A stretch of DNA of 17,705 bases from a virus. Taxonomy: Duplodnaviria; Heunggongvirae; Uroviricota; Caudoviricetes. The notes under the pieces were generated by a model. The model was given only the letters and a program-made list of their open reading frames with translations, was not told the DNA's origin and did no database searches. The stretch lies in the IMG/VR virus record IMGVR_UViG_2534681773_000018; one strand, given 5' to 3'. The position numbers and the translations under genes were made by a program. Positions 1 through 16,502 of this stretch are shown here, piece by piece (position 1 is the stretch's first letter; each line of letters begins with the position of its first letter).

Positions 1-579
1 ATTGCACAGAATATGGCGGCGATGCTGACCGGCAGTGAGCAGAACTGGCGCAGCTTCACCCGTTCCGTGCTGTCCATGATGACAGAAATTCTGCTTAAGC
101 AGGCAATGGTGGGGATTGTCGGGAGTATCGGCAGCGCCATTGGCGGGGCTGTTGGTGGCGGCGCATCAGCGTCAGGAGGTACAGCCATTCAGGCTGCTGC
201 GGCGAAATTCCATTTTGCGACCGGGGGATTTACGGGAACCGGCGGCAAATATGAGCCAGCGGGGATTGTTCACCGTGGTGAATTTGTCTTCACGAAGGAG
301 GCAACCAGCCGGATTGGCGTGGGGAATCTCTACCGGCTGATGCGCGGCTATGCCACCGGTGGTTATGTCGGTACACCGGGCAGTCTGGCTGACAGCCGGT
401 CGCAGGCGTCCGGGACGTTTGAGCAGAATAACCATGTGGTGATTAACAACGACGGCACGAACGGGCAGATAGGTCCGGCTGCTCTGAAGGCGGTGTATGA
501 CATGGCCCGCAAGGGTGCCCGTGATGAAATTCAGACACAGATGCGTGATGGTGGCCTGTTCTCCGGAGGTGGACGATGA
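1..579 (+). CDS. H: Tail tape measure protein (lambda gpH-like), C-terminal part; 5' end lies outside the window
   Basis: Frame is open from position 1 with no upstream stop in the window; stop TGA 577-579 overlaps the ATG of the next gene (ATGA). Gly/Ala-rich C-terminus. Sits immediately upstream of the M-L-K-I-J block, as H does in lambda. Confidence 0.75.
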   Translation: MAQNMAAMLTGSEQNWRSFTRSVLSMMTEILLKQAMVGIVGSIGSAIGGAVGGGASASGGTAIQAAAAKFHFATGGFTGTGGKYEPAGIVHRGEFVFTKEATSRIGVGNLYRLMRGYATGGYVGTPGSLADSRSQASGTFEQNNHVVINNDGTNGQIGPAALKAVYDMARKGARDEIQTQMRDGGLFSGGGR

Positions 580-905
580 AGACCTTCCGCTGGAAAGTGA
601 AACCCGGTATGGATGTGGCTTCGGTCCCTTCTGTCAGGGAGGTGCGCTTTGGTGATGGCTATTCCCAGCGTGCGCCTGCCGGGCTGAACGCTGACCTGAA
701 AACGTACAGCGTGACGCTGTCTGTCTCCCGTGAGGAGGCCACGGCGCTGGAGTCGTTTCTGGCTGAGCACGGGGGCTGGAAGGCCTTTCTGTGGACGCCG
801 CCTTATGGTTACAGGCAGATAAAGGTGACCTGCGCAAAATGGTCGTCGCAGGTCAGTATGTTGCGTGTTGAGTTCAGCGCAGAGTTTAAACAGGTGGTGA
901 ACTGA
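576..905 (+). CDS. M: Minor tail protein M (lambda gpM-like), 109 aa
   Basis: ATG 576 overlaps the H stop. 109-aa product beginning MKTFRWKVKPGMDVASVP, same length as lambda gpM and near-identical to it as I recall it. Stop overlaps the L start (TGATG). Confidence 0.93.
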   Translation: MKTFRWKVKPGMDVASVPSVREVRFGDGYSQRAPAGLNADLKTYSVTLSVSREEATALESFLAEHGGWKAFLWTPPYGYRQIKVTCAKWSSQVSMLRVEFSAEFKQVVN

Positions 906-1603
906 TGCAGGATATCCGGCAGGAAACACTGAATGAATGCACCCGTGCGGAGCAGTCGGCCAGCGTGGTGCTCTGGGAAATCGATCTGACAGAGGTCGGT
1001 GGTGAACGTTATTTTTTCTGTAATGAGCAGAACGAAAAAGGTGAGCCGGTTACCTGGCAGGGGCGGCAGTATCAGGCATACCCCATTCAGGGGACAGGAT
1101 TTGAACTGAACGGCAAGGGCAGTGCTGCCCGTCCGACACTGACGGTTTCTAACCTGCACGGCATGGTCACGGGGATGGCGGAAGACCTGCAGAGTCTGGT
1201 CGGCGGAACGGTGGTCAGGCGTAAGGTTTACGCCCGTTTTCTGGATGCGGTGAACTTCGTCAACGGAAACAGTGACGCCGATCCGGAGCAGGAGGTGATC
1301 AGCCGCTGGCGCATCGAGCAGTGCAGCGAACTGAGCGCGGTGAGTGCCTCCTTTGTACTGTCCACGCCGACGGAAACGGATGGCGCTGTTTTTCCGGGAC
1401 GTATCATGCTGGCCAACACCTGCACCTGGACCTATCGCGGTGACGAGTGCGGTTATAGCGGTCCGGCTGTCGCGGATGAATATGACCAGCCAACGTCCGA
1501 TATCACGAAGGATAAATGCAGCAAATGCCTGAGCGGTTGTAAGTTCCGCAATAACGTCGGCAACTTTGGCGGCTTCCTTTCCATTAACAAACTTTCGCAG
1601 TAA
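905..1603 (+). CDS. L: Minor tail protein L (lambda gpL-like), 232 aa, with C-terminal Cys cluster
   Basis: 232-aa product beginning MQDIRQETLNECTRAEQSASVVLWEIDL, matching lambda gpL in length and sequence. C-terminal cysteines (CTWTYRGDECGYSG ... KCSKCLSGC) fit the reported Fe-S site of gpL. Confidence 0.93.
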   Translation: MQDIRQETLNECTRAEQSASVVLWEIDLTEVGGERYFFCNEQNEKGEPVTWQGRQYQAYPIQGTGFELNGKGSAARPTLTVSNLHGMVTGMAEDLQSLVGGTVVRRKVYARFLDAVNFVNGNSDADPEQEVISRWRIEQCSELSAVSASFVLSTPTETDGAVFPGRIMLANTCTWTYRGDECGYSGPAVADEYDQPTSDITKDKCSKCLSGCKFRNNVGNFGGFLSINKLSQ

Positions 1604-1608
1604 ATCCC

Positions 1609-2352
1609 ATGACACAGACAGAATCAGCGATTCTGGCGCACGCCCGGCGATGTGCGCCAGCGGAGTCGTGCGGCTTCGTGGTAAGCACGCCGGAGGGGGA
1701 AAGATATTTCCCCTGCGTGAATATCTCCGGTGAGCCGGAGGCGTATTTCCGTATGTCGCCGGAAGACTGGCTGCAGGCAGAAATGCAGGGGGAGATTGTG
1801 GCGCTGGTCCACAGCCACCCCGGTGGTCTGCCCTGGCTGAGTGAGGCCGACCGGCGGCTGCAGGTGCAGAGTGATTTGCCGTGGTGGCTGGTCTGCCGGG
1901 GTGAGATTCATAAGTTCCGCTGTGTGCCGCATCTCACCGGGCGGCGCTTTGAGCACGGTGTGACGGACTGTTACACACTGTTCCGGGATGCTTATCATCT
2001 GGCGGAGATTGAGATGCCGGATTTTGTGCGTGAGGATGACTGGTGGCGTAACGGTCAGAATCTCTATCTGGATAATCTGGAGGCCACAGGGCTGTATCAG
2101 GTGCCGTTGTCAGCGGCGCAGCCGGGCGATGTGCTGCTGTGCTGTTTTGGTTCATCGGTGCCGAATCACGCCGCTATTTACTGTGGTGACGGCGAGCTGC
2201 TGCACCATATTCCTGAACAACTGAGTAAACGGGAGAGGTATACCGACAAATGGCAGCGACGCACACACTCCCTCTGGCGTCACCGGGAATGGCACGCATC
2301 TGCCTTTACGGGGATTTGCAACGATTTGGCCGCCGCATCGACCTTCGTGTGA
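1609..2352 (+). CDS. K: Tail tip assembly protein K (lambda gpK-like): JAB/MPN (JAMM) domain plus NlpC/P60-like domain
   Basis: 247-aa ORF starting 6 nt after the L stop. Contains a JAMM-type motif HSHPGGLPWLSEAD (H-x-H-x7-S-x2-D) and a C-terminal region with Cys/His residues (GVTDCYTLF, PNHAAIYCGDGELLHH) typical of NlpC/P60. Its 3' end overlaps the I start by about 100 nt in another frame, as K and I do in lambda. Confidence 0.9.
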   Translation: MTQTESAILAHARRCAPAESCGFVVSTPEGERYFPCVNISGEPEAYFRMSPEDWLQAEMQGEIVALVHSHPGGLPWLSEADRRLQVQSDLPWWLVCRGEIHKFRCVPHLTGRRFEHGVTDCYTLFRDAYHLAEIEMPDFVREDDWWRNGQNLYLDNLEATGLYQVPLSAAQPGDVLLCCFGSSVPNHAAIYCGDGELLHHIPEQLSKRERYTDKWQRRTHSLWRHREWHASAFTGICNDLAAASTFV

Positions 2353-2921
2353 AAACGGGGGCTGAAGCCATCCGCGCACTGGCCACACAGCTCCCGGCGT
2401 TTCGTCAGAAACTGAGCGACGGCTGGTATCAGGTACGGATTGCCGGGCGGGACGTCAGCGCGTCCGGGTTAACGGCGCAGTTACATGAGACTCTGCCTGA
2501 CGGCGCTGTGATTCATATTGTTCCCAGAGTCGCCGGGGCCAAGTCAGGTGGCGTATTCCAGATTGTCCTGGGGGCTGCAGCCATTGCCGGATCATTCTTT
2601 ACCGCCGGAGCCACCCTTGCAGCATGGGGGGCAGCCATTGGGGCCGGTGGTATGACCGGCATCCTGTTTTCTCTCGGTGCCAGTATGGTGCTCGGTGGTG
2701 TGGCGCAGATGCTGGCACCGAAAGCCAGAACTCCCCGTACACAGACAACGGATAACGGTAAGCAGAACACCTATTTCTCCTCACTGGATAACATGGTTGC
2801 CCAGGGCAATGTTCTGCCTGTTCTGTACGGGGAAATGCGCGTGGGGTCTCGCGTGGTTTCTCAGGAGATCAGCACGGCAGACGAAGGGGATGGTGGTCAG
2901 GTTGTGGTGATTGGTCGCTGA
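2250..2921 (+). CDS. I: Tail tip assembly protein I (lambda gpI-like), 223 aa
   Basis: 223-aa product beginning MAATHTLPLASPGMARICLYGDLQRFGRRIDLRVKTG with a hydrophobic Gly/Ala-rich central segment, matching lambda gpI in length and sequence; position between K and J. Confidence 0.92.
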   Translation: MAATHTLPLASPGMARICLYGDLQRFGRRIDLRVKTGAEAIRALATQLPAFRQKLSDGWYQVRIAGRDVSASGLTAQLHETLPDGAVIHIVPRVAGAKSGGVFQIVLGAAAIAGSFFTAGATLAAWGAAIGAGGMTGILFSLGASMVLGGVAQMLAPKARTPRTQTTDNGKQNTYFSSLDNMVAQGNVLPVLYGEMRVGSRVVSQEISTADEGDGGQVVVIGR

Positions 2922-2937
2922 TGAAAAACGTTTATGT

Positions 2938-2962
2938 GAAACCGCCTGCGGGCGGTTTTGTC
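2938..2962 (+). other. Stem-loop in the I-J intergenic spacer (aaaccgcc-tgcg-ggcggtttt)
   Basis: Inverted repeat ccgcc / ggcgg with a 4-nt loop, followed by a short T-rich stretch, 20 nt upstream of the J ATG. Could be an attenuator or RNA-processing/translation-control structure; function not established. Confidence 0.3.
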
Positions 2963-2980
2963 GTTTATGGAGCGTGACGA

Positions 2981-5900
2981 ATGGGTAAAGGCAGCAGTAA
3001 GGGGCATACCCCGCGCGAAGCGAAGGACAACCTGAAGTCCACGCAGCTGCTGAGTGTGATCGATGCCATCAGCGAAGGGCCGATTGAAGGTCCGGTGGAT
3101 GGATTAAAAAGCGTGCTGCTGAACAGTACGCCGGTGCTGGACAGTGAGGGGAATACCAATATCTCCGGTGTCACGGTGGTGTTCCGGGCCGGTGAGCAGG
3201 AGCAGACACCGCCGGAGGGATTTGAATCCTCCGGCTCCGAGACGGTGCTGGGTACGGAAGTGAAATATGACACGCCGATCACCCGCACCATCACGTCGGC
3301 AAACATCGACCGTCTGCGCTTTACCTTCGGTGTGCAGGCACTGGTGGAAACCACCTCAAAGGGGGACAGGAATCCGTCGGAAGTCCGCCTGCTGGTTCAG
3401 ATACAGCGTAATGGTGGCTGGGTGACGGAAAAAGACATCACCATTAAGGGCAAAACCACCTCGCAGTATCTGGCCTCGGTGGTGGTGGATAACCTGCCGC
3501 CGCGCCCGTTCAATATCCGGATGCGCAGGATGACGCCGGACAGCACCACAGACCAGCTGCAGAACAAAACGCTCTGGTCGTCATACACCGAAATCATCGA
3601 TGTGAAACAGTGCTACCCGAACACGGCACTGGTCGGCGTACAGGTGGACTCGGAGCAGTTCGGCAGCCAGCAGGTGAGCCGTAATTATCATCTGCGCGGG
3701 CGTATTCTGCAGGTGCCGTCGAACTATAACCCGCAGACGCGGCAATACAGCGGTATCTGGGACGGAACGTTTAAACCAGCATACAGCAACAACATGGCCT
3801 GGTGTCTGTGGGATATGCTGACCCATCCGCGCTACGGCATGGGGAAACGTCTTGGTGCGGCGGATGTGGATAAATGGGCGCTGTATGTCATCGGCCAGAA
3901 TTGCGACCAGTCGGTGCCGGACGGCTTTGGCGGCACGGAGCCGCGCATCACCTGTAATGCCTGGCTGACCACACAGCGCAAGGCGTGGGATGTGCTCAGT
4001 GATTTCTGCTCGGCGATGCGCTGTATGCCGGTATGGAACGGGCAGACGCTGACGTTCGTGCAGGACCGACCATCAGATAAGGTGTGGACCTATAACCGCA
4101 GTAATGTGGTGATGCCGGATGATGGCGCGCCGTTCCGCTACAGCTTCAGCGCCCTGAAGGACCGCCATAATGCCGTTGAGGTGAACTGGATTGACCCGAA
4201 TAACGGCTGGGAGACGGCGACAGAGCTTGTGGAGGACACGCAGGCCATTGCCCGTTACGGTCGTAACGTCACGAAGATGGATGCCTTTGGCTGTACCAGC
4301 CGGGGGCAGGCACACCGCGCCGGGCTGTGGCTGATTAAAACAGAACTGCTGGAGACGCAGACCGTGGATTTCAGCGTGGGTGCTGAAGGGCTTCGCCATG
4401 TACCGGGCGATGTCATTGAAATCTGCGATGATGACTATGCCGGTATCAGCACCGGTGGGCGCGTGCTGGCGGTAAACAGCCAGACCCGGACGCTGACGCT
4501 CGACCGTGAAATCACGCCGCCATCCTCCGGTACCACGCTGATAAGCCTGGTTGACGGAAGTGGCAATCCGATCAGCGTGGAGGTTCAGTCCGTCACCGAC
4601 GGCGTGAAGGTGAAAGTGAGCCGTGTTCCTGACGGCGTTGCAGAATACAGTGTGTGGGGGCTGAAGTTGCCGACGTTGCGCCAGCGCCTGTTCCGCTGTG
4701 TGAGTATCCGTGAGAACGATGACGGCACGTATGCTATCACCGCCGTGCAGCATGTACCGGAAAAAGAAGCCATCGTGGATAACGGGGCGCACTTTGACGG
4801 CGACCAGAGCGGCACGGTGAATGGTGTCACGCCGCCAGCGGTGCAGCACCTGACTGCCGAAGTCACCGCAGACAGCGGGGAATATCAGGTGCTGGCGCGC
4901 TGGGACACACCGAAGGTGGTGAAGGGCGTGAGCTTCCTGCTCCGTCTGACCGTAACAGCGGACGACGGCAGTGAGCGGCTGGTCAGCACGGCCCGGACGA
5001 CGGAAACCACATACCGCTTCACACAACTGGCGTTGGGGAACTACAGGCTGACAGTCCGGGCGGTAAATGCGTGGGGACAGCAGGGCGATCCGGCATCGGT
5101 ATCGTTCCGGATTGCCGCACCGGCAGCGCCGTCTCGGATTGAGCTGACACCGGGCTATTTTCAGATAACCGCCACGCCGCATCTTGCGGTTTATGACCCG
5201 ACGGTACAGTTTGAGTTCTGGTTCTCGGAAAAACGGATTGCGGATATCAGGCAGGTTGAAACCAGCGCGCGTTATCTTGGTACGGCACTGTACTGGATAG
5301 CCGCCAGTATCAATATCAAACCGGGCCATGATTATTATTTTTACGTTCGCAGTGTGAACACCGTTGGCAAATCGGCATTCGTGGAGGCTGTCGGTCAGCC
5401 GAGTGATGATGCATCAGGCTATCTGGATTTTTTCAAAGGCGAGATAGGGAAAACCCATCTGGCTCAGGAGCTGTGGACGCAGATTGATAACGGTCAGCTT
5501 GCGCCTGACCTGACTGAAATCAGGACGTCCATAACGGATGTCAGCAATGAAATAACACAGACCGTCAATAAGAAACTGGAAGACCAGAGTGCAGCGATCC
5601 AGCAGATACAGAAGGTTCAGGTTGATACAAATAATAACCTGAACAGCATGTGGGCAGTGAAGCTGCAGCAGATGCAGGACGGACGCCTTTATATTGCGGG
5701 TATCGGTGCCGGTATTGAGAACACCCCTGACGGCATGCAGAGTCAGGTGCTGCTGGCAGCAGACAGGATTGCGATGATTAATCCTGCGAATGGCAACACA
5801 AAGCCGATGTTTGTTGGTCAGGGCGATCAGATATTCATGAATGAAGTGTTCCTGAAACGCCTGACGGCCCCCACCATTACCAGCGGCGGTAATCCTCCGG

Positions 5901-6478
5901 CATTTTCCCTGACATCAGACGGGAGACTGACGGCGAAAAATGCGGATATCAGTGGCAGTGTGAATGCGAACTCAGGAACGCTCAACAATGTCACGATTAA
6001 CCAGAACTGTACGATTAAGGGCATGCTGGAGGCGACCCAGGTCAGAGGAGATTTCGTTAAAGCTGTATCAAAAGCCTTCCCGAAAAAAGTCGGTACGTGG
6101 GGTAACACGGAAACACCAAACGGTACGGTTACAGTCACCATCAGCGATGATCATAACTTTGACCGCCAGATTATTATTCCGCCCATTATTTTTAACGGTA
6201 TAGCGTATGACGATCCGGGGAGCGGAAATAACCCAGGAGGCACGCGATACACGGGTTATGGTTTTGAAGTTCGCAAAAACGGCGTATTAATCGCATCCAG
6301 AGAAACTAAAGGGGCCATTCCCGGTAGTTACAGTGCAGTTATTGATATGCCGAGTGGCAGGGGAAGCGTCACTCTGGAGTTTAAGATTTTCCAGAAAGGC
6401 AATCAGGGGGCAGGCAATATCACCGACTGTACGGTGATTGTGACCAAAAAAGCCGCTTCCGGCATCAGTATTCGTTGA
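2981..6478 (+). CDS. J: Tail tip attachment / host specificity protein J (lambda gpJ-like), 1165 aa
   Basis: 1165-aa ORF beginning [54 protein letters not shown], matching the lambda gpJ N-terminal and central regions. The C-terminal third (receptor-binding region) differs from what I recall for lambda J. Immediately followed by an intrinsic terminator. Confidence 0.93.
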
Positions 6479-6499
6479 AATATTTATAACCCCAATAAA

Positions 6500-6524
6500 G
6501 GGCGTCAGGAATGACGCCTTTTTT
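6500..6524 (+). terminator. Rho-independent terminator downstream of J
   Basis: Stem ggcgtca (6501-6507) / tgacgcc (6512-6518) with loop ggaa, followed by TTTTTT (6519-6524). Confidence 0.7.
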
Positions 6525-6548
6525 ATTGCAGAAAAGCGAGAGGTAATT

Positions 6549-7148
6549 ATGCGTAAAGTTTGTGCAGCAATTTTGTCCGCAGCCATTTGTCTGGCCGTAT
6601 CCGGTGCGCCTGCATGGGCGTCTGAACATCAGTCCACGCTGAGCGCGGGGTATCTTCATGCCTCGACGAACGTCCCCGGCAGCGATGATCTGAACGGGAT
6701 TAACGTGAAATACCGTTATGAGTTTACGGACACACTGGGGCTGGTGACGTCATTCAGCTATGCAGGAGACAAGAATCGCCAGCTGACCCGTTACAGCGAT
6801 ACCCGCTGGCATGAAGATTCCGTTCGTAACCGCTGGTTCAGCGTAATGGCGGGGCCGTCTGTGCGCGTGAATGAATGGTTCAGCGCGTATGCGATGGCGG
6901 GTGTAGCTTACAGCCGTGTGTCGACTTTCTCCGGGGATTATCTTCGCGTAACTGACAACAAGGGGAAAAAGCACGATGTGCTGACCGGAAGTGATGACGG
7001 TCGCCACAGCAACACGTCTCTGGCGTGGGGGGCTGGCGTGCAGTTTAACCCGACCGAATCCGTGGCCATTGATATTGCTTATGAATGCTCCGGCAGTGGC
7101 GACTGGCGCACTGACGGTTTCATCGTGGGTGTCGGTTATAAATTCTGA
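6549..7148 (+). CDS. lom: Lom-family outer membrane protein (Ail/Lom/OmpX beta-barrel), 199 aa, prophage moron
   Basis: Signal-peptide-like N-terminus (MRKVCAAILSAAICLAVSGAPAWA), C-terminal GVGYKF beta-barrel terminus with terminal Phe, position directly after J as in lambda. Preceded by GAGAGG ribosome-binding site and flanked by terminators on both sides. Confidence 0.9.
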   Translation: MRKVCAAILSAAICLAVSGAPAWASEHQSTLSAGYLHASTNVPGSDDLNGINVKYRYEFTDTLGLVTSFSYAGDKNRQLTRYSDTRWHEDSVRNRWFSVMAGPSVRVNEWFSAYAMAGVAYSRVSTFSGDYLRVTDNKGKKHDVLTGSDDGRHSNTSLAWGAGVQFNPTESVAIDIAYECSGSGDWRTDGFIVGVGYKF

Positions 7149-7175
7149 TTAGCCAGGTAACACAGTGTTATGACA

Positions 7176-7201
7176 GCCCGCCGGTTCAGGCGGGCTTTTT
7201 T
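7176..7201 (+). terminator. Rho-independent terminator downstream of lom
   Basis: Stem gcccgcc (7176-7182) / ggcgggc (7189-7195), loop ggttca, followed by TTTTTT (7196-7201). Confidence 0.7.
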
Positions 7202-7212
7202 GTGGGGTGAAT

Positions 7213-10107
7213 ATGGCAGTAAAGATTTCAGGTGTACTGAAAGACGGCACAGGAAAACCGGTACAGAACTGCACAATCCAGCTGAAAGCAAAACGTAACA
7301 GCACCACGGTGGTGGTGAACACGCTGGCCTCAGAAAATCCGGATGAAGCCGGGCGTTACAGCATGGACGTTGAGTACGGGCAGTACAGCGTTATTCTGTT
7401 GGTGGAGGGATTCCCGCCGTCACATGCCGGGACCATCACCGTGTATGAAGATTCCCGACCCGGTACGCTGAATGATTTTCTCGGTGCCATGACGGAGGAT
7501 GATGCCCGTCCTGAGGCACTGCGCCGTTTTGAACTGATGGTGGAAGAGGTGGCGCGTAACGCGTCCGCGGTGGCACAGAACACGGCAGCCGCGAAGAAGT
7601 CAGCCAGCGATGCCAGCACATCAGCCCGTGAGGCGGCAACCCATGCGACTGATGCTGCAGATTCAGCACGTGCAGCCAGCACGTCAGCCGGACAGGCCGC
7701 TTCGTCGGCTCAGTCAGCGTCTTCCAGCGCAGGAACGGCATCAACAAAGGCCACTGAAGCCTCAAAAAGTGCTGCCGCTGCAGAGTCCTCAAAAAGCGTG
7801 GCAGCTACCAGTGCCGGTGCGGCGAAAACGTCAGAAACGAATGCCGCAGCGTCAGAACAATCAGCCGCCACTTCTGCATCCACCGCGACCACGAAAGCGT
7901 CAGAAGCTGCCACCTCAGCCCGGGATGCGGCGGCCTCAAAAGAGGCAGCGAAATCATCAGAAACGAACGCATCCTTGAGCGCCAGTAGCGCAGCTTCCTC
8001 GGCAACGGCGGCAGGAAATTCCGCGAAGGCGGCAAAAACGTCCGAGACGAACGCCAGGTCTTCTGAGACGGCAGCGGGACAGAGCGCCTCAGCTGCGGCA
8101 GGCTCAAAAACAGCGGCTGCGTCGTCTGCCAGTGCCGCGTCAACAAGTGCCGGGCAGGCCTCAGCCAGTGCCACCGCCGCCGGAAAATCGGCAGAAAGCG
8201 CCGCATCATCCGCTTCAACAGCCACAACGAAGGCTGGCGAAGCCACTGAGCAGGCCACGGCAGCAGCGAGGTCAGCTTCCGCAGCGAAGACATCCGAAAC
8301 GAACGCGAAAGCGTCGGAAACCCGTGCAGAATCCTCAAAAACGGCAGCGGCATCGTCCGCCAGTTCGGCGGCGTCATCGGCATCATCGGCGTCTGCTTCA
8401 AAAGATGAGGCGACCAGACAGGCGTCAGCAGCGAAGGGCAGCGCCACGACGGCATCCACGAAGGCGACAGAGGCTGCTGGTAGTGCGAAGGCAGCAGCTC
8501 AGAGCAAAAGTACGGCGGAATCTGCAGCAACGCGCGCTGAGACAGCGGCAAAACGGGCAGAGGATATTGCATCCGCCGTGGCGCTTGAGGATGCGAGCAC
8601 GACGAAAAAGGGGATAGTACAGCTCAGTAGTGCGACTAACAGCACTTCCGAGTCACTGGCGGCAACGCCAAAGGCAGTAAAAGCAGCCAATGACAATGCT
8701 GAGAAACGTCTGCAGAAAGATCAGAACGGTGCGGATATCCCTGGCAAAGACACCTTTACGAAAAATATTGGTGCCTGCCGTGCCTTCGGTGGGTCAGTAA
8801 GCACAACAACAGGAAACTGGACGACTGCACAGTTTATCGAGTGGCTGGATTCTCAGGGAGCATTTAACCATCCATACTGGATGTGCAAGGGTTCCTGGTC
8901 TTATGGCAATAATAAAATCATTACTGATACTGGCTGCGGTAATATTCATCTCGCCGGAGCTGTCATTGAAGTAATGGGGATAAAGTCAGCGATGACGATC
9001 CGCATTACCACTCCGACCACATCCAGCGGTGGCGGAACAACCAACGCCCAGTTTACCTATATTAATCACGGAACAGATTATTCACCTGGCTGGCGAAGGG
9101 ACTATAACTCCAGAAATAAGCCAACGGCATCAGAGATCGGGGCGCTACCGTCAGGTGGAACAGCAGTATCATCAGTTAATCTGGCTTCAAAAGGTCGGGT
9201 AGCCGCGCTGACAGACAATACGCAGGGGGCAGCAGGTCTTGAGTTATACGAGGTGTATAACAACGGATATCCAACAACGTATGGAAATATCATTCACCTG
9301 AAAGGGATGACAGCCGTTGGCGAAGGTGAGTTACTCATCGGCTGGAGTGGTACAAGCGGTGCTCATGCTCCGGCATTTATTCGTTCACGACGGGATACGA
9401 CCGACGCAAACTGGTCGCCGTGGGCGCAGCTTTACACCTCGGCTCATCCTCCTGCAGAGTTTTATCCAGTCGGTGCACCAATCCCGTGGCCATCAGATAC
9501 CGTTCCGTCTGGTTATGTCCTGATGCAGGGGCAGACTTTTGACAAATCTGCATACCCGAAACTTGCAGCCGCTTATCCGTCAGGCGTGATCCCTGATATG
9601 CGTGGCTGGACGATTAAGGGCAAACCTGCCAGTGGTCGGGCCGTATTGTCTCAGGAACAGGACGGCATTAAATCGCACACCCACAGCGCCAGCGCATCCA
9701 GTACGGATTTGGGGACGAAAACCACATCGTCGTTTGATTACGGCACTAAATCCACGAATAACATCGGGGCGCATACGCACAGTGTGAGCGGTACAGCCGC
9801 AAGTGCCGGAAACCATACTCATAGTGTCACAGGCGCATCAGCAGTCAGCCAGTGGTCACAAAATGGGTCAGTACATAAGGTAGTGTCTGCGGCCAGTGTG
9901 AATACAAGTGCTGCAGGAGCGCACACTCATAGTGTCAGCGGCACAGCTGCATCTGCAGGTGCTCACGCACATACTGTCGGTATTGGTGCTCATACGCACT
10001 CGGTTGCGATTGGCTCACATGGACACACCATCACCGTTAACGCTGCTGGTAACGCGGAAAACACCGTCAAAAACATCGCATTTAACTATATTGTGAGGCT
10101 TGCATGA
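7213..10107 (+). CDS. stf: Side tail fibre protein (lambda Stf-like), about 964 aa from ATG 7213
   Basis: N-terminus [26 protein letters not shown] matches lambda Stf. The ORF track starts at GTG 7207, but ATG 7213 is preceded by a GGGG run and matches the lambda start. Long Ala/Ser/Thr-rich repetitive segment, a Cys/Trp-containing central domain, and a C-terminal region with repeated GAHxH motifs ending [11 protein letters not shown] as in lambda Stf. Confidence 0.9.
7560..8590 (+). repeat. Imperfect tandem coding repeats (Ala/Ser/Thr-rich, recurring AAKTSETNA / SASTATTKA units) inside stf
   Basis: Recurrent nucleotide motifs such as aaaacgtcagaaacgaatgc / aagacatccgaaacgaacgc and the corresponding peptide repeats. 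The region has few stop codons in any frame, which produces many overlapping alternative-frame ORFs in the track. Confidence 0.6.
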
Positions 10108-10394
10108 TTACGCTCATTCTTTCTGCACCAGTAACCGAAATGGCTGAAGCATTTAAGCGGGTATTTGCAAATGCAGATAATGTGAATATTGTCGGAAAGC
10201 CATTTGAAACAATCAGAGAATTTGACTGCATGGTAAGTGCGGCAAATAGTTTCGGCCTGATGGATGGCGGTGTTGATGCCGCCATTACCACATTCTTCGG
10301 TTCTCAGCTACAGGCCCGCGTTCAGAATCATATTCTTCGTGAATATCTCGGCGAGCAGCCTGTAGGTTCTGCATTTGTGATCCTACCCACGTAA
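10104..10394 (+). CDS. Macro-domain-like protein fragment (putative ADP-ribose binding/processing); 3' end truncated by IS3
   Basis: ATG 10104 overlaps the stf stop (ATGA), suggesting translational coupling. Product contains [21 protein letters not shown], resembling the macro-domain signature (VVNAAN...GGGV..AI). Visibly more AT-rich than stf. The frame runs into the IS3 terminal repeat (from 10378) and stops there, so the last few codons are IS-derived. Confidence 0.45.
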
Positions 10395-10407
10395 TATGGA
10401 CACAGGC

Positions 10408-11274
10408 CTAAGCGAGGTTCTGGTTTTCAAATTGTTCCGGACTGAGGCCGCCACACCAACTGTGCCGCCGCCACCGATTGTAATCACATTCGATATAATT
10501 AAACACCGTTGCCCGCATTATTTCCCGGCTGATAAAGTGTTCTCCATGGATACATTCCACTTTCAGCGAATGAAAGAAGCTTTCCACGCAGGCATTATCG
10601 TAGCAGCAACCTTTTGCGCTCATACTTCCACGCAGATTATGCCGCTTCAGTTGCGCCTGATAATCTGCTGAACAGTACTGGCCTCCACGGTCCGTGTGAA
10701 CGATAACGTTCCGGGGCCTCTTACGCCGCCACAGCGCCATCTGCAGGGCATCGCAGGCCAGTTGCGCCGTCATGCGTGGCGACATTGACCAGCCAATAAC
10801 GGCACGTGACCACAGGTCAATGACCACTGCCAGATACAGCCAGCCTTCATCTGTACGTAAGTACGTGATGTCTCCTGCCCACTTCTGGTTCGGGCCACTG
10901 GCGTAAAAATCCTGCTCCAACAGATTTTCTGACACAGGCAGGCCGTGTGCGCGGTAGCTGACCGGGCTGAACTTCCGGGAGGCCTTTGCCCTCAGTCCCT
11001 GACGGCGCAGGCTTGCCGCCACGGTTTTTACGTTAAAGGGGTAACCCTGAGCACGCAGTTCATCCGTCAGGCGTGGGGCACCGTAACGCTGTTTTGACCG
11101 GGTAAAAGCCGCGAGGACAACGCTGTCGCAGTGTTGGCGGAACTGCTGACGCGTGCTTATCCTTGTCCGCCGCTGACACCACGTATACCAGCCGCTGCGG
11201 GCCACCCGGAGCACGCGGCACATTGCTTTGATGCTGAACTCAGCCTGATGTTTTTCAATAAAGACATACTTCAT
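10408..11274 (-). CDS. insF: IS3 transposase OrfB (DDE integrase-like catalytic domain), 288 aa
   Basis: 288-aa ORF beginning [36 protein letters not shown], recognisable as the IS3 OrfB/InsF sequence. ATG 11272-11274 overlaps the orfA stop in the -1 arrangement typical of the IS3 family. Confidence 0.9.
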
Positions 11275-11569
11275 TTCAGGCGCTTCGCGAAGTATGTCGC
11301 GGCCTTTTGGAGGATAGCCAGCTCTTCATCCCGTTCTGCCAGCTGGCGTTTGAGACGTGCAATCTCGGTAGACATCTCCAGTTCACGTTCAGAAGACGTC
11401 TGCTGATTTTGCTGTTTACTGCGCCAGTTGTAGAGCTGTGATTCATACAGGCTGAGTTCACGGGCTGCGGCAGTAACACCGATGCGTTCAGCAAGCTTCA
11501 GGGCTTCACTGCGAAATTCAGGCGAATGCTGTTTACGGGGTTTTTACTGGTTGATACTGTTTTTGTCAT
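11271..11569 (-). pseudogene. insE: IS3 orfA (InsE-like HTH protein); reading frame appears interrupted in this copy
   Basis: ATG at 11567-11569 opens the expected MTKTVSTSK start and the C-terminal segment ([37 protein letters not shown]) is readable in the frame ending at 11271-11273. No intact ORF joins them in the track: the span is 299 nt (not a multiple of 3) and my hand translation hits an early stop after about 20 codons. Base-level details here are uncertain. Confidence 0.5.
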
Positions 11570-11634
11570 GTGAGTCACCTCTGACTGAGAGTTTACTCAC
11601 TTAGCCGCGTGTCCACTATTGCTGGGTAAGATCA

Positions 11635-11857
11635 CCGGGCAGGTCTGTATTAACCCTGAACATCAGGCTGATGATGTACTGATACAACATCAGGCTAATA
11701 ACCGGTTTCGCCCTGGTTCGCATATACACCGGATTAATCCAGAAAATCCTGTAGGTAATGTCATCTCTGGCGCACATAGCCACGGAAGTAGCATCGTTAT
11801 TGGTGCTCACACCCATACGCTCAATAAACAATATTCTGTCTCTGATATTAAGTAGAG
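11635..11857 (+). pseudogene. 3' remnant of a second tail fibre gene (His-rich GAHxH C-terminal repeat region), truncated at the IS3 boundary
   Basis: The frame entering from the IS3 end encodes ...[30 protein letters not shown] and stops 8 nt before the tfa start. It resembles, but is not identical to, the GAHTHSV.../[16 protein letters not shown] repeats at the stf C-terminus. It sits where a fibre gene 3' end is expected, directly upstream of tfa. Confidence 0.45.
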
Positions 11858-11863
11858 GTGAAC

Positions 11864-12439
11864 ATGGATTTCAGAATGAGTGAACAACCACGGACCATAA
11901 CAATTTATAATCTGCTGGCCGGAACTAATGAATTTATTGGTGAAGGTGACGCATACATTCCGCCTCATACAGGTCTGCCAGCAAACAGTACCGATATTGC
12001 ACCGCCAGATATTCCGGCTGGTTTCGTGGCTGTTTTCAACAGTGATGAGTCATCGTGGCATCTCGTTGAAGATCATCGGGGTAAAACGGTTTATGACGTG
12101 GCTTCCGGCGACGCGTTATTTATTTCTGAACTCGGCTCATTACCGGAAAATGTCACCTGGTTATCCCCGGAAGGGGAGTTTCAGAAGTGGAACGGCACAG
12201 CCTGGGTGAAGGATACGGAAGCAGAAAAACTGTTCCGGATCCGGGAGGCGGAAGAAACAAAAAACAGCCTGATGCAGGTAGCCAGTGAGCATATAGCGCC
12301 GCTTCAGGATGCTGTGGATCTGGAGATCGCAACGGAGAAAGAAACCTTGTTGCTGGAAGCCTGGAAAAAGTATCGGGTGTTGCTGAACCGTGTTGATACA
12401 TCAACTGCACCGGATATTGAATGGCCAGCCCTACCGTAG
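11864..12439 (+). CDS. tfa: Tail fibre assembly protein (lambda Tfa-like), about 191 aa from ATG 11864
   Basis: Product [62 protein letters not shown] ... [45 protein letters not shown] closely matches lambda Tfa. GAGGTG ribosome-binding site about 5 nt upstream of ATG 11864 (the ORF track starts at GTG 11858). Confidence 0.9.
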
Positions 12440-12540: not shown

Positions 12541-13127
12541 ATATCAGGTGTCTGATTTTTTGCTTTAGCTCTTAAAATGGTTTGCCGCGAGGTTTTGAAT
12601 TCTTGGGCAATGTCACTTATATTTATACCTGACTTAATTTGCTCTAGTACCCTCTGTATTTGTTCATCATTTAACACAGGTGGGCGACCAAATCGCTTTC
12701 CTGCGCCCCGTGCTCTTAATATCCCTGAATGAGTACGCTCAAGTAAAAGGTCTCGCTCAAATTCAGCGACTGCTGAAATTACTTGCATCATCATTTTTCC
12801 AGGTGGACTGGTCAGGTCAACGCCCCCCAATGCTAAGCAATGCACTTTGATACCTGCTTTGGTCAGTTGTTCCACCGTTTTACTGATATCCATTGGATTA
12901 CAACCGAGGCGATCCAGTTTTGTGACAATCAATGCATCACCTCTTTTCAGTCGATCAAGCAACTGGTTAAAACCAGGACGCTCACTGGTTGCTGCTGAGC
13001 CGCTAATTTGTTCTTCAATTATTTGCTGAGATTTGATGTTAAAACCTGCACTTTCGATTTCCCGACGTTGATTTTTGGTTGTCTTTTCCAGAGTTGATAC
13101 CCGACAGTAAGCATAAATTCGAGACAT
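12537..13127 (-). CDS. Serine recombinase, Gin/Hin/Pin/Cin-type DNA invertase (resolvase/invertase family), 196 aa
   Basis: N-terminal catalytic motif YAYCRVST (active-site Ser), conserved [19 protein letters not shown] and GRPP motifs, and a C-terminal HTH-like tail. It aligns along its length with Gin/Hin as I recall them. Located next to tail-fibre/tfa genes, as pin, gin and cin are. Confidence 0.85.
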
Positions 13128-13445
13128 AGTGAGATCTTCTATACGAAATTGGTGTACATATCATAATGCATCTCAGAAAATAATTTTGATTATTTTTGTA
13201 CATATTTGTATGTACACGTTCGAAAATAAACGAATGCGTATGCAACCCCGTAATTTTGGTGAGACCCAAAATCGATTTTGTGAAAAATGGCCTTAACTCG
13301 GTTTGTTTTTCGAGTTCCGGGCGGACTCAAGGAAGAAGAATAGTGTTGCGTGTTATTTTAACCAGATTTCAAGTTGTTTGGTCGTGGAAAAGTGGAGCAA
13401 AATGTTGTTAAAGTGGAAAAATGATAAAAAAGTAAGTTTATTATA

Positions 13446-13712
13446 TTACATTTTACCATTTAAATTTTTGTTGTCTTTAAGAACTGATATCGCTGTTTGT
13501 AATAATTCTTTGTTATCCAGCCATGACTTTTTCTTTATGTTTCCTTCAATGTAATCAAGCAATGTTCTGGTATTGATAGGTCTTCCCTGTTTTGCTACTT
13601 CCACTACAGCATCCCCTAGGATAATTCTTACTTCAGGAAGCTGCGCAGGGAACCACTTTAGGGTGTCTTTTGATTTCATGAAGATATTCCTTAAAATATT
13701 ATTGATTTTCAT
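13446..13712 (-). CDS. Hypothetical small protein (77-88 aa), AT-rich, no recognisable family
   Basis: ORF on the - strand. The second Met (ATG 13677-13679) is preceded by an AAGGAA ribosome-binding site and is the more plausible start. Very AT-rich. I recognise no motif, and coding status is uncertain. Confidence 0.35.
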   Translation of the reverse strand: MKINNILRNIFMKSKDTLKWFPAQLPEVRIILGDAVVEVAKQGRPINTRTLLDYIEGNIKKKSWLDNKELLQTAISVLKDNKNLNGKM

Positions 13713-14180
13713 TGCGATATTGTATGTCTGATTCAGGATATGTTGACTTATACATCGGTTTTGTCTGGGTTATTGGATATGCCAATCCCTAATTTTATTA
13801 GAGCATGACTAAAAATGCTGAATATGATAAGGAGCGAAGTGATTATCAGTATGCTGTTCATATAGCCTCGAATTAGTAATGTGTTATATATGATATAGTT
13901 GACAATTTTTATCCTGGGTGTTCTTAAAGTTCGTAGATAAACATTGTCGTTTCAGGTATACAGGAATGCTAACAGGTGGCGGCAAAAATCAGGCGGTTTA
14001 TGGCGCAAGCTGAAGTGTCAACTGCAAACTATCTTATGCAGAGACTCTACACGGATTGGGTTTAAAAGTATACATAGATAACAGTTTTTATCTGAAGAAG
14101 AAAAATATCAAGGTGATATAGCCTATATGCCTATGATGCGGAGGAATGAATGTGATGGGAGTGATGTATCTGAATAGTTG

Positions 14181-14220
14181 AAAAACCGCAGACACGCCTT
14201 ATGCAAGAACGTGCTGCGGT
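14181..14220 (-). terminator. Rho-independent terminator for the - strand methyltransferase gene
   Basis: Stem ccgcagacacg (14186-14196) / cgtgctgcgg (14210-14219) with one bulge. On the - strand the stem is followed directly by TTTTT (complement of aaaaa 14181-14185), a few nt downstream of the methyltransferase stop. Confidence 0.5.
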
Positions 14221-14226
14221 TGGATG

Positions 14227-14895
14227 CTATTTTTTCCCTGAAGCGGAAAACATTACTACAGTACCTTGAACCTTGGTTTTAACATTCTCGAAATACTCTG
14301 AGAGTATATGTGTTAAGCCTTCTTCGGAATCTTTTGTGTTTGAAAAGATGCCTTTCTGATTGTAAATGCGCATCAGTTTTTGACCGAAGCTATTGTGCAC
14401 AATTCCATCGCCAAGAATTGTGGCTCCGTATAGAGTTCCATCGTCAGTTAAGGCCTGCGCCGCATTGCGTATTACACAGCTTTTTGTAGATATATTTCCA
14501 GGCAGGCAGTGAAGAAGGTAAAACATGGAAATGGAATCAAATTGACCATGTAACGCCGCGGGATAAGGTTCAAAAACATCATGGTTAATTTTATGTTTAA
14601 TTTTTGATTCCCCAGCCCTTGTAGATGCCGCGTTCAGGCTAGCTTCGTTCAAATCCATTAAAGATATCAGACTACTCTCAGGTACGTGAGTAAGGTAAAA
14701 CCCAGTTCCAACACCAATATCCAGATGGTTGTTACCTAAATGTTCCAGAAAGTGTGGAAGAAGGTGTTCCTTTGTAGGACATCCCCATGCAAGCCGATTT
14801 GATACTCCCAAAACCCACCAGTCATAAAGCTTTAGGGTAAGTGGTGTGTAAATTTTAGCCCCATCATCTGTGTTTTTTTTCATTAATTTCACCAT
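14227..14895 (-). CDS. ybcY: Class I SAM-dependent methyltransferase (ybcY-like), 222 aa
   Basis: Contains the glycine-rich SAM-binding motif LDIGVGTGF. Its position between a tfa gene and a tfaX-like remnant upstream of appY-ompT matches the DLP12 gene order as I remember it. The symbol is assigned by synteny and is not verified. Confidence 0.6.
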   Translation of the reverse strand: MVKLMKKNTDDGAKIYTPLTLKLYDWWVLGVSNRLAWGCPTKEHLLPHFLEHLGNNHLDIGVGTGFYLTHVPESSLISLMDLNEASLNAASTRAGESKIKHKINHDVFEPYPAALHGQFDSISMFYLLHCLPGNISTKSCVIRNAAQALTDDGTLYGATILGDGIVHNSFGQKLMRIYNQKGIFSNTKDSEEGLTHILSEYFENVKTKVQGTVVMFSASGKK

Positions 14896-15753: not shown

Positions 15754-16502
15754 ATGGATTATGTTTGCTCCGTAGTTTTCATCTGTCAATCATTTGATTT
15801 AATTATAAACAGGAGAGTTATCTCGTTCAAAAAAAATTCATTGTTTATTGTAAGCGACAAAATTAGAAGGGAGTTACCAGTATGCCCCTCTAAACTAAGA
15901 ATTGTTGATATAGATAAGAAAACATGTTTATCCTTTTTTATCGACGTGAATAATGAGCTGCCTGGCAAATTTACTCTTGATAAGAATGGCTATATTGCTG
16001 AAGAGGAACCTCCATTATCGCTTGTTTTTTCTCTGTTTGAAGGGATTAAAATAGCAGACTCACACTCCCTTTGGTTAAAAGAAAGACTATGTATATCCTT
16101 ACTTGCCATGTTCAAAAAACGCGAAAGTGTAAATTCTTTTATACTAACAAATATAAATACATTTACCTGTAAAATTACTGGAATAATCAGTTTTAATATT
16201 GAGCGGCAATGGCATTTAAAAGATATTGCGGAATTGATTTATACGAGTGAAAGTTTAATAAAAAAAGATTAAGGGATGAAGGAACGTCATTTGCTGAAAT
16301 ATTGAGAGATACTAGGATGAGGTATGCAAAAAAACTCATAACTTCAAACTCTTATTCTATCAATGTCGTAGCCCAGAAATGTGGCTATAACAGTACTTCA
16401 TATTTCATATGTGCATTTAAAGATTATTATGGTGTCACGCCATCTCATTATTTTGAGAAAATAATCGGCGTCACAGATGGAATAAACAAAACAATTGACT
16501 GA
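15754..16502 (+). pseudogene. appY: AraC-family transcriptional regulator AppY, interrupted by a frameshift in a poly-A tract (split into 172-aa and 66-aa ORFs)
   Basis: N-terminus [21 protein letters not shown] and its position directly upstream of ompT identify appY. The first frame stops at 16270-16272 right after an A7 run (16260-16266). The second AraC HTH ([24 protein letters not shown]...[23 protein letters not shown]) continues in the +1 frame. The span is 749 nt, one short of a 249-aa gene plus stop. Confidence 0.75.

Follow-up and report, generated by a model that had tools for sequence, protein, structure and literature searches.

The ynaM-ydfK accessory module at the end of a lambdoid prophage, and a possible likeness of YdfK to the AriR/YcgZ connector proteins

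The Rac and Qin prophages of E. coli K-12 each carry a two-gene unit, ynaM-ynaE in Rac and ynfT-ydfK in Qin, which is the same module in both cases; it lies at the prophage end and its parts follow in the order pin, ydfK, ynaM, leader and hairpin. On transfer to low temperature YdfK is up-regulated drastically, and at 16 °C it has been captured with NudC (PMC10654059). Intact K-12 YdfK and YnaE were detected by top-down mass spectrometry after refrigeration of colonies, at 8772.78 and 8745.75 Da, respectively (PMC5594050). The synthesis of K-12 YnaM was demonstrated by chromosomal SPA tagging (PMC6001520), and the tagged protein was more abundant than most of the newly found small proteins (PMC6001520; bioRxiv 10.1101/511675). 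The cold-induction and protein data belong to the K-12 alleles, and not to the strain from which the DNA described here derives.

Several groups of genes invite comparison with this module. The transcripts of ydfK and ynaE co-vary with those of cspB, cspF, cspG, cspH and cspI in unrelated transcriptome studies, so that YdfK shares with the CspA-family genes (cspA, cspB, cspG and cspI) both cold-shock induction and, in several such studies, co-regulation. However, the CspA family is characterised by a cold-shock domain and a thermosensing 5′ UTR, whereas a Pfam scan finds no cold-shock domain in YdfK. Qin also carries cspB, cspF and cspI. The accessory genes (morons) of the lambdoid b-region or att-proximal region, such as lom, bor and the DinI-like genes, are likewise AT-rich, bounded by a terminator and served by a promoter of their own (a predicted one in the case of ynaM-ydfK), and like them ynaM-ydfK is a prophage-expressed cassette lying between the tail-fibre genes and att/int. 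It is unlike them in that its cargo comprises two genes, encoding a membrane micro-protein and a putatively connector-like protein, and in that no downstream terminator can be recognised. Finally, there are the connectors YmgB/AriR, YcgZ and YmgA (PF10798; PDB 2OXL), from which YdfK differs in being prophage-borne, in being paired with a membrane micro-protein and in not being under the BluR/BluF locus.

Here we have analysed positions 13446–14226 of a 17,705-nucleotide stretch of viral DNA, the whole of which we call the window. The region lies between a serine invertase gene (pin, Pfam Resolvase; 13127-12537, minus strand) and a gene for a class I SAM-dependent methyltransferase (14895-14227, minus strand). 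It was known from a first-pass annotation to be AT-rich, and indeed its GC content is 0.36 compared with 0.56 in the tail genes (positions 1–10000). Pseudogenes occur nearby, namely a macro-domain gene split by an IS element, a tfa fragment and a frameshifted appY. The same annotation had described the region as an orphan open reading frame (ORF) that could be placed in no family, next to a wholly unassigned non-coding block at 13713–14226. Neither description survives closer analysis. In our assessment the region as a whole is very probably explained as the ynaM-ydfK accessory module of lambdoid prophages, equivalent to the units of Rac and Qin.

The ORF at 13446–13712 on the minus strand is, as first reported, an ATG ORF of 88 amino acids with an internal ATG at 13679. 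The RefSeq protein WP_000836765.1, named 'cold shock protein YdfK' and 77 amino acids long, maps back to 13446–13679, and its start is thus the one that the first-pass annotation had preferred on account of a Shine-Dalgarno sequence, AAGGAA, at 13687–13692. The masses calculated for the 77-amino acid forms with methionine retained are 8772.80 Da for YdfK and 8745.75 Da for YnaE, whereas the 88-amino acid form would have a mass of 10129.6 Da. Since the intact masses of the K-12 proteins are those of the 77-amino acid form, the start is placed at 13679, and the 88-amino acid form is ruled out by the RefSeq start together with these masses. A single residue (Q71K) separates the YdfK of the window from that of K-12. 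A profile search, which had been proposed for the small protein, aligned residues 1–77 of 77 with PHROG 2718 (E 7.5e-47), and the Pfam family PF27475 (YnaE) is the precomputed match on YdfK homologues. On the strength of these sequence matches, the ORF at 13446–13679 is ydfK, a known gene, and is neither an orphan nor without a family.

The family to which YdfK belongs is small and enterobacterial, with 94 clusters at 90% identity; an exhaustive profile search of 1.84 billion proteins returned 31 representatives at 50% identity, many of which are fragments. Full-length homologues are found in Enterobacter and Limnobaculum (52–64% identity) and in Salmonella (86%). The gene order in the window is that of the family, in that ydfK adjoins the pin invertase gene and ynaM at the att-proximal prophage end. 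The distant members (52–64%) lack ynaM; in Enterobacter and E. coli they stand beside ynfU and a GH94 glucan synthase gene, and the relative from Limnobaculum is located in a prophage, also without ynaM.

It is correct that no ORF of at least 60 amino acids starts within 13713–14226 on either strand. Nevertheless, 114 nt of this supposedly non-coding block are annotated as ynaM/ynfT, a 37-amino acid gene at 13748–13861 on the minus strand with a Shine-Dalgarno sequence, GAGG, at 13866–13869; the RefSeq protein WP_120795384.1 (37 amino acids) maps back to exactly these positions. YnaM scores 96.2 bits against Pfam PF23676 (cut-off 27) and 63.9 bits against NCBIfam NF041477 (cut-off 35), it has one N-terminal transmembrane helix (maximum Kyte-Doolittle value over 19 residues 2.52), and its sequence in the window does not differ from that of K-12.

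The coding character of both genes was examined in eight alleles, namely those of the window, Rac, Qin, the phages 2H10, PhiR63_1 and Turner, and the strains KC-Dl-1 and F374. Variable sites fall at codon position 3 in six of seven cases in ynaM, with one amino-acid change across the eight alleles, and in eight of eleven cases in ydfK. The Salmonella orthologue of YnaM is kept as a protein despite lower DNA identity. As judged from these substitution patterns, ynaM and ydfK are under purifying selection and no other ORF of the block is. Seven further ORFs of 21–45 amino acids, on both strands, were considered and rejected, their substitutions being spread evenly across codon positions, as was a 28-amino acid ORF that overlaps the 3′ end of ynaM and the spacer and has no third-position bias; several of these rejected ORFs gain stop codons in variant alleles. 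Two of them are annotated as hypothetical proteins in the record of phage Turner. By the same measure of coding character, no further gene besides ynaM is hidden in the 13713–14226 block.

The module is widespread. A search with positions 13130–14260 (1131 bp) by megablast found annotated chromosomes that are 100% identical, and gave a match in 4971 of the 5426 complete E. coli genomes; the features annotated under the match are 'ydfK: cold shock protein YdfK', 'YnaM/YnfT family protein' and 'class I SAM-dependent methyltransferase'. With the 365-bp non-coding block alone, a match was obtained in 3575/5426 complete E. coli genomes and at least 80% of the block was covered in 2792. In matching chromosomes the neighbourhood runs from tail fibre and tail-fibre assembly genes through pin to the methyltransferase gene, a tfa fragment, appY, ompT and envY, and this arrangement identifies a lambdoid prophage at a DLP12-type site. 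The module in the window belongs, unlike those of Rac and Qin, to a fuller lambdoid prophage at such a site (appY-ompT-envY). The complete block is also present in plaque-forming phages (Turner, Kati, HannyBb, Tritos, 2H10, mEp460_ev081 and the PhiR series), in which the module lies between int/DinI and pin/tfa/stf, that is, in the classical att-proximal accessory region. Over the 781-nt module the other alleles are 92–99% identical to the window, a figure that drops to about 89% for the most divergent of them when only the 365-bp non-coding block is compared.

This distribution bears on the view that the ORF and the gap are functionless remnants of a decaying prophage, either pieces of a larger gene or ORFs due to chance. 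The location would allow for this, being a prophage end rich in AT with pseudogenes close by. Against this, none of the alleles examined has a disrupted copy of either ORF, the third-position substitution bias is seen in both, the module recurs in plaque-forming phages as well as in thousands of genomes, the K-12 proteins YnaM, YdfK and YnaE have been detected (PMC6001520; PMC5594050), and full-length YdfK homologues persist in Enterobacter and Limnobaculum at 52–64% identity and in Salmonella at 86%. We regard decay as extremely improbable. The conservation in related genomes that the first-pass annotation had asked about is strong for the ORF and for the non-coding block alike, both transcript and protein are on record for K-12, and the ORF does not derive from a larger, disrupted gene.

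In Salmonella the arrangement differs. In the prophage whose YdfK is 86% identical, ynaM, ydfK and parts of the spacer between them are conserved, and in place of the leader the upstream block holds a gene for a 137-amino acid lipoprotein and a second, 70-amino acid YnaE paralogue; ynaM is there an internal gene of a four-gene operon. As the leader is replaced while ynaM and ydfK are kept, the leader is not an obligatory part of the unit.

Upstream, the module is bounded on the minus strand by an intrinsic terminator at 14181–14220, made up of a hairpin at 14186–14220 (dG −20.7 kcal/mol, z −4.7 compared with shuffled sequences) that is followed by T5 at 14181–14185. A simple terminator scan missed the hairpin because its rule is unfit for a stem with an inner branch. 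The hairpin begins 7 nt past the methyltransferase stop codon, and in this respect the earlier statement that the block ends in the methyltransferase terminator stands. However, it is precisely with this hairpin that homology to the Rac and Qin copies sets in; they share about 98–99% DNA identity with the unit in the window, and a three-way alignment stays near-identical past the end of ydfK. The hairpin is accordingly part of the mobile module and not merely the terminator of the methyltransferase gene. What lies upstream is different: in the window an intact SAM methyltransferase gene precedes the hairpin, whereas in Rac and Qin the prophage boundary does. The same hairpin is found in HK97, mEp460, HK106 and other lambdoid phages beside sib/att (sib/attP in HK97). 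It is stable in both directions, but on the plus strand no U-run directly adjoins it.

Between the terminator hairpin and ynaM there are about 320 nt with no credible ORF on the minus strand. A single sigma-70-like site precedes ynaM on that strand, TTCAGA-18 nt-TATACT at 14067–14096; this predicted promoter would start transcription near 14060 and produce a non-coding leader of about 200 nt (13862–14060). The site matches 9/12 positions in a scan that overall was not enriched over shuffled sequences (6 sites found, 4.8 expected). Across the eight alleles 1 of its 30 positions varies, compared with 34/179 in the flanking non-coding DNA, the latter comprising the mid-leader and the DNA that separates the hairpin from the promoter. 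In K-12, genomic-SELEX peaks of RNA polymerase holoenzyme, and H-NS, have been placed in the ynaE-uspF and ydfI-ydfK spacers (PMC3946193; PMC5493296). Once their coordinates are shifted between genome versions, the RNA polymerase peaks correspond to 14035–14169 of the window and cover the predicted promoter, with a shift that was checked on two other spacers and is constrained only to about 100–150 nt. This shift we take to be about +1976 nt. A Cappable-seq supplement has no transcription start entry in either of the two K-12 coordinate ranges, and two recent papers on cold shock and RNA structure make no mention of these genes. A promoter, which the first-pass annotation had imagined as one possible content of the gap, is thus predicted there.

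Downstream of ynaM, the 68-nt spacer to ydfK (13680–13747, minus strand), which contains the ydfK Shine-Dalgarno sequence, is the best conserved part of the unit, with 2/68 positions varying (Fisher p 0.0009 compared with the flanking non-coding DNA). It has no hairpin that we could find, and it includes a possible internal promoter, TCAACA-16-TACAAT, at 13719–13746 on the minus strand. The stretch on the 3′ side of ydfK (13370–13445, minus strand) is unstructured, C-rich and G-poor, with a minimum free energy (MFE) of 0 kcal/mol and neither an intrinsic terminator nor any terminator-like site. Transcription past ydfK may therefore read through toward pin, from which ydfK is separated by a spacer of about 320 nt, or may end in Rho-dependent termination.

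A regulatory RNA was another possible content of the gap, either a cspA-like thermosensing 5′ UTR responsible for cold induction or a separate sRNA. There are reasons to take this seriously, given that ydfK is cold-induced, that a leader of considerable length is predicted (about 200 nt up to ynaM and about 380 nt up to ydfK), and that conservation in the 3′ part of the leader, where 5/64 positions vary just upstream of ynaM across the eight alleles, and in the ynaM-ydfK spacer exceeds that of the non-coding DNA nearby. However, a search of the whole window with Rfam at gathering score gives no family in the region, and relaxing it to E up to 10 over 13100–14300 brings up nothing credible, with no match to the cspA thermoregulator model; nor is there a cspA cold box within 2 mismatches, so that the ynaM-ydfK leader is unlike that of cspA in both respects. 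The one match that could be put in favour of an RNA, to CssrB (RF02799) on the plus strand at 14081–14218, falls well short of the threshold of 76 bits, at 28.5 bits, and is carried by a shared terminator hairpin, nothing else aligning well. The transcript comprising leader, ynaM and spacer (13660–14062) folds no better than shuffled sequences (MFE z −0.21), and none of the 42 predicted leader pairs is compensatory in a consensus fold of seven alleles, which form two haplotype groups only and give the comparison low power. The Salmonella operon, moreover, swaps the leader for other genes and keeps ynaM and ydfK. There is no sign of an sRNA or of a structured RNA in the block, and regulation by an RNA encoded here appears unlikely to us. 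Of the contents once imagined for the gap, then, the very small protein is real, the promoter is predicted, and the regulatory RNA is not borne out by the Rfam, folding and covariation analyses.

A related proposal is that YnaM is a hydrophobic peptide of the type I toxin kind, and that an antisense RNA transcribed from the plus strand of the block keeps it in check. Its length of 37 amino acids, its single hydrophobic helix, the long leader and a hairpin (14186–14220) that is stable in both directions would all suit such a system. Yet tagged YnaM reaches comparatively high levels in LB with no toxicity reported (PMC6001520; bioRxiv 10.1101/511675), no promoter-like site or sRNA family match on the plus strand overlaps the ynaM leader, the hairpin has no directly adjoining U-run on the plus strand, and ynaM in Salmonella is internal to an operon of four genes. 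We consider a toxin of this type very unlikely.

As regards function, the predicted structure of YdfK provides a lead. The AlphaFold model of YdfK, built with 18 homologues, has a pLDDT of 79 and three helices, and when it was submitted to Foldseek the top match was 2OXL, with a TM score of 0.81 and an E value of only 0.04. The model thus has the three-helix fold of YmgB, at a sequence identity between YdfK and AriR of 15%. At the level of profiles, the NCBIfam YcgZ model matches YdfK weakly (E 0.0079; 16.4 bits compared with a cut-off of 80), and an hhalign comparison of the YnaE-family alignment with that of YcgZ/AriR/YmgA gives a probability of 86% and an E value of 4.9e-6 over 61 columns, which is the whole helical core. 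In 200 column-shuffled controls hhalign scored 9.9 ± 2.2 (maximum 18.7); the actual score, 35.6, lies about 12 standard deviations above them, and the core common to both groups reads LGxAVxExxxxGRxxNxxxL.

Other searches did not connect the two families. Pfam YmgB (PF10798) matches neither YdfK nor any of the 18 aligned family members at E up to 10, and P0102, a distant member of the YnaE family outside those 18, reaches 12.3 bits compared with a YmgB cut-off of 22.3; being below the Pfam threshold, YdfK is not filed as a member of the YmgB family. The exhaustive profile search, over 1.84 billion representatives, produced no bridge sequences to YcgZ or AriR, and a sequence search of the PDB with the family profile gave a chance match only (E 0.32). 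Small three-helix folds are prone to convergent matches, and the connector reading rests on similarity of fold and profile. In the literature searched we found no statement of homology between YdfK and the connectors.

The resemblance of YdfK to YmgB/AriR, YcgZ and YmgA suggests that it may act in a connector-like manner, as far as a model and sequence profiles can indicate. For YmgB itself, direct binding to SpoT is documented, together with an action through the Rcs system (PMC10704370). One possibility, which we advance tentatively and hold to be doubtful as it stands, is that YdfK/YnaE is a phage-spread and very distant member of the YcgZ/YmgA/AriR group that at low temperature docks on a host signalling protein and rewires the envelope-stress or stringent response of the lysogen. 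Components of the Rcs phosphorelay, SpoT and the CsdA/NudC RNA-decay machinery can be named as host partners in such a scheme, and YnaM could act together with YdfK.

A different view is that YdfK is a transcriptional regulator that binds DNA and not a connector that binds proteins. Older names of ynaE and ydfK, and of some members of the clusters, read 'prophage predicted DNA-binding transcriptional regulator', and YmgB/AriR, the closest structural relative of YdfK, was reportedly first compared, in the paper describing 2OXL, with nucleoid-associated modulators of the Hha type. However, YdfK contains neither a helix-turn-helix nor any other DNA-binding Pfam domain, its best structural matches are not DNA-binding domains save for some weak, generic helical ones, and the direct binding of SpoT and the action via Rcs reported for YmgB (PMC10704370) speak for contacts with proteins. 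DNA binding by YdfK is in our estimation improbable.

We propose the following mechanism for the ynaM-ydfK module. The module, at the att-proximal end of the prophage past the tail-fibre genes and pin, is expressed from the lysogen. The terminator at 14181–14220 ends the methyltransferase transcript and shields the unit from upstream transcription on the minus strand, and the predicted sigma-70 promoter at 14067–14096 would start an mRNA whose leader measures about 200 nt. This single mRNA would probably encode first YnaM, which spans the membrane once, and, after the spacer of 68 nt, YdfK, a cytoplasmic protein, the two genes being co-transcribed; the spacer may hold a second promoter. At low temperature YdfK may then bind and modulate a larger host regulator, and not RNA as CspA does.

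What has been found is in the main already known, namely a two-gene prophage module that is annotated and in part experimentally validated, and as a finding of a sequence scan it is minor, given that both genes are annotated in RefSeq, both belong to Pfam families and both have protein evidence in K-12. It does illustrate that an ORF threshold of 60 amino acids hides validated micro-proteins such as YnaM. New here is solely the link of YdfK, by structure and by profile, to the AriR/YcgZ connectors, which we offer as a hypothesis derived from a model and from profile comparisons, and not as a discovery in the sequence. It would give a functional lead for the y-gene ydfK, whose surrounding module finds a match in about 90% of the complete genomes of E. 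coli, and it points to candidate partners at low temperature in Rcs, SpoT and CsdA/NudC. If the connector reading is true, most E. coli strains would carry, in one to several prophage-encoded copies, a regulator of host physiology that is specific to the cold.

On the minus strand, the 76 nt that follow the ydfK stop codon (13370-13445) are C-rich and G-poor, and folding of this stretch gave 0 kcal/mol; these properties would suit either a Rho-utilisation site or read-through into the invertase gene pin. Upstream of pin, also on the minus strand, lies a promoter-like site, TGTACA-16-AATAAT (13189-13216), and the identical sequence has been predicted as the promoter of the K-12 counterparts pinR and pinQ in a genomic-SELEX study.

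On the plus strand, positions 14081-14218 gave a sub-threshold match to the Shigella small RNA family CssrB (28.5 bits against a threshold of 76). The terminator hairpin next to the methyltransferase gene is the only part truly in common, which suggests that the corresponding terminator region in a related prophage gave rise to CssrB. A further Rfam match, full-length to IS009 (12207-12405, plus strand; 218 bits, threshold 117), falls within the tail-fibre assembly gene tfa (11858-12439); this high-scoring 'RNA family' overlaps protein-coding sequence.

The reading frames of two other genes are broken in the window as sequenced. Directly 3' of the side tail-fibre gene, a macro-domain gene (10104-11800) carries an IS3-family insertion, with the transposase orfB (Pfam rve) at 10408-11274 on the minus strand, and the annotation of strain ST2350 shows this gene split by an IS3-family element in the same way. 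The plus-strand gene appY (15754-16502) is frameshifted at an A-run near 16259-16266, which is A7 in the window versus A8 in ST2350; this 1-nt deletion breaks the 249-aa activator into ORFs of 172 and 66 aa, and may reflect either a real pseudogene or a sequencing error at the homopolymer.

Relatives of YnaE also occur in other settings. In a Salmonella enterica contig (L017, 2143-3234), within a P2/Mu-like tail region, ynaM-ynaE is preceded by genes for a second YnaE-family paralogue (70 aa) and a predicted lipoprotein (137 aa), and the four genes apparently form one operon. Divergent homologues (52-64% identity) on Enterobacter, E. coli and Limnobaculum contigs (L006-L015) often lie head-to-head with the gene for YnfU, a zinc-binding small protein, and in the Enterobacter loci GnsAB is also close by. 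In the K-12 Qin prophage, ynfU adjoins the cold-shock genes cspB and cspF. The settings of these divergent homologues and of ynfU in Qin hint that small, cold-associated prophage genes may recur together as a set.
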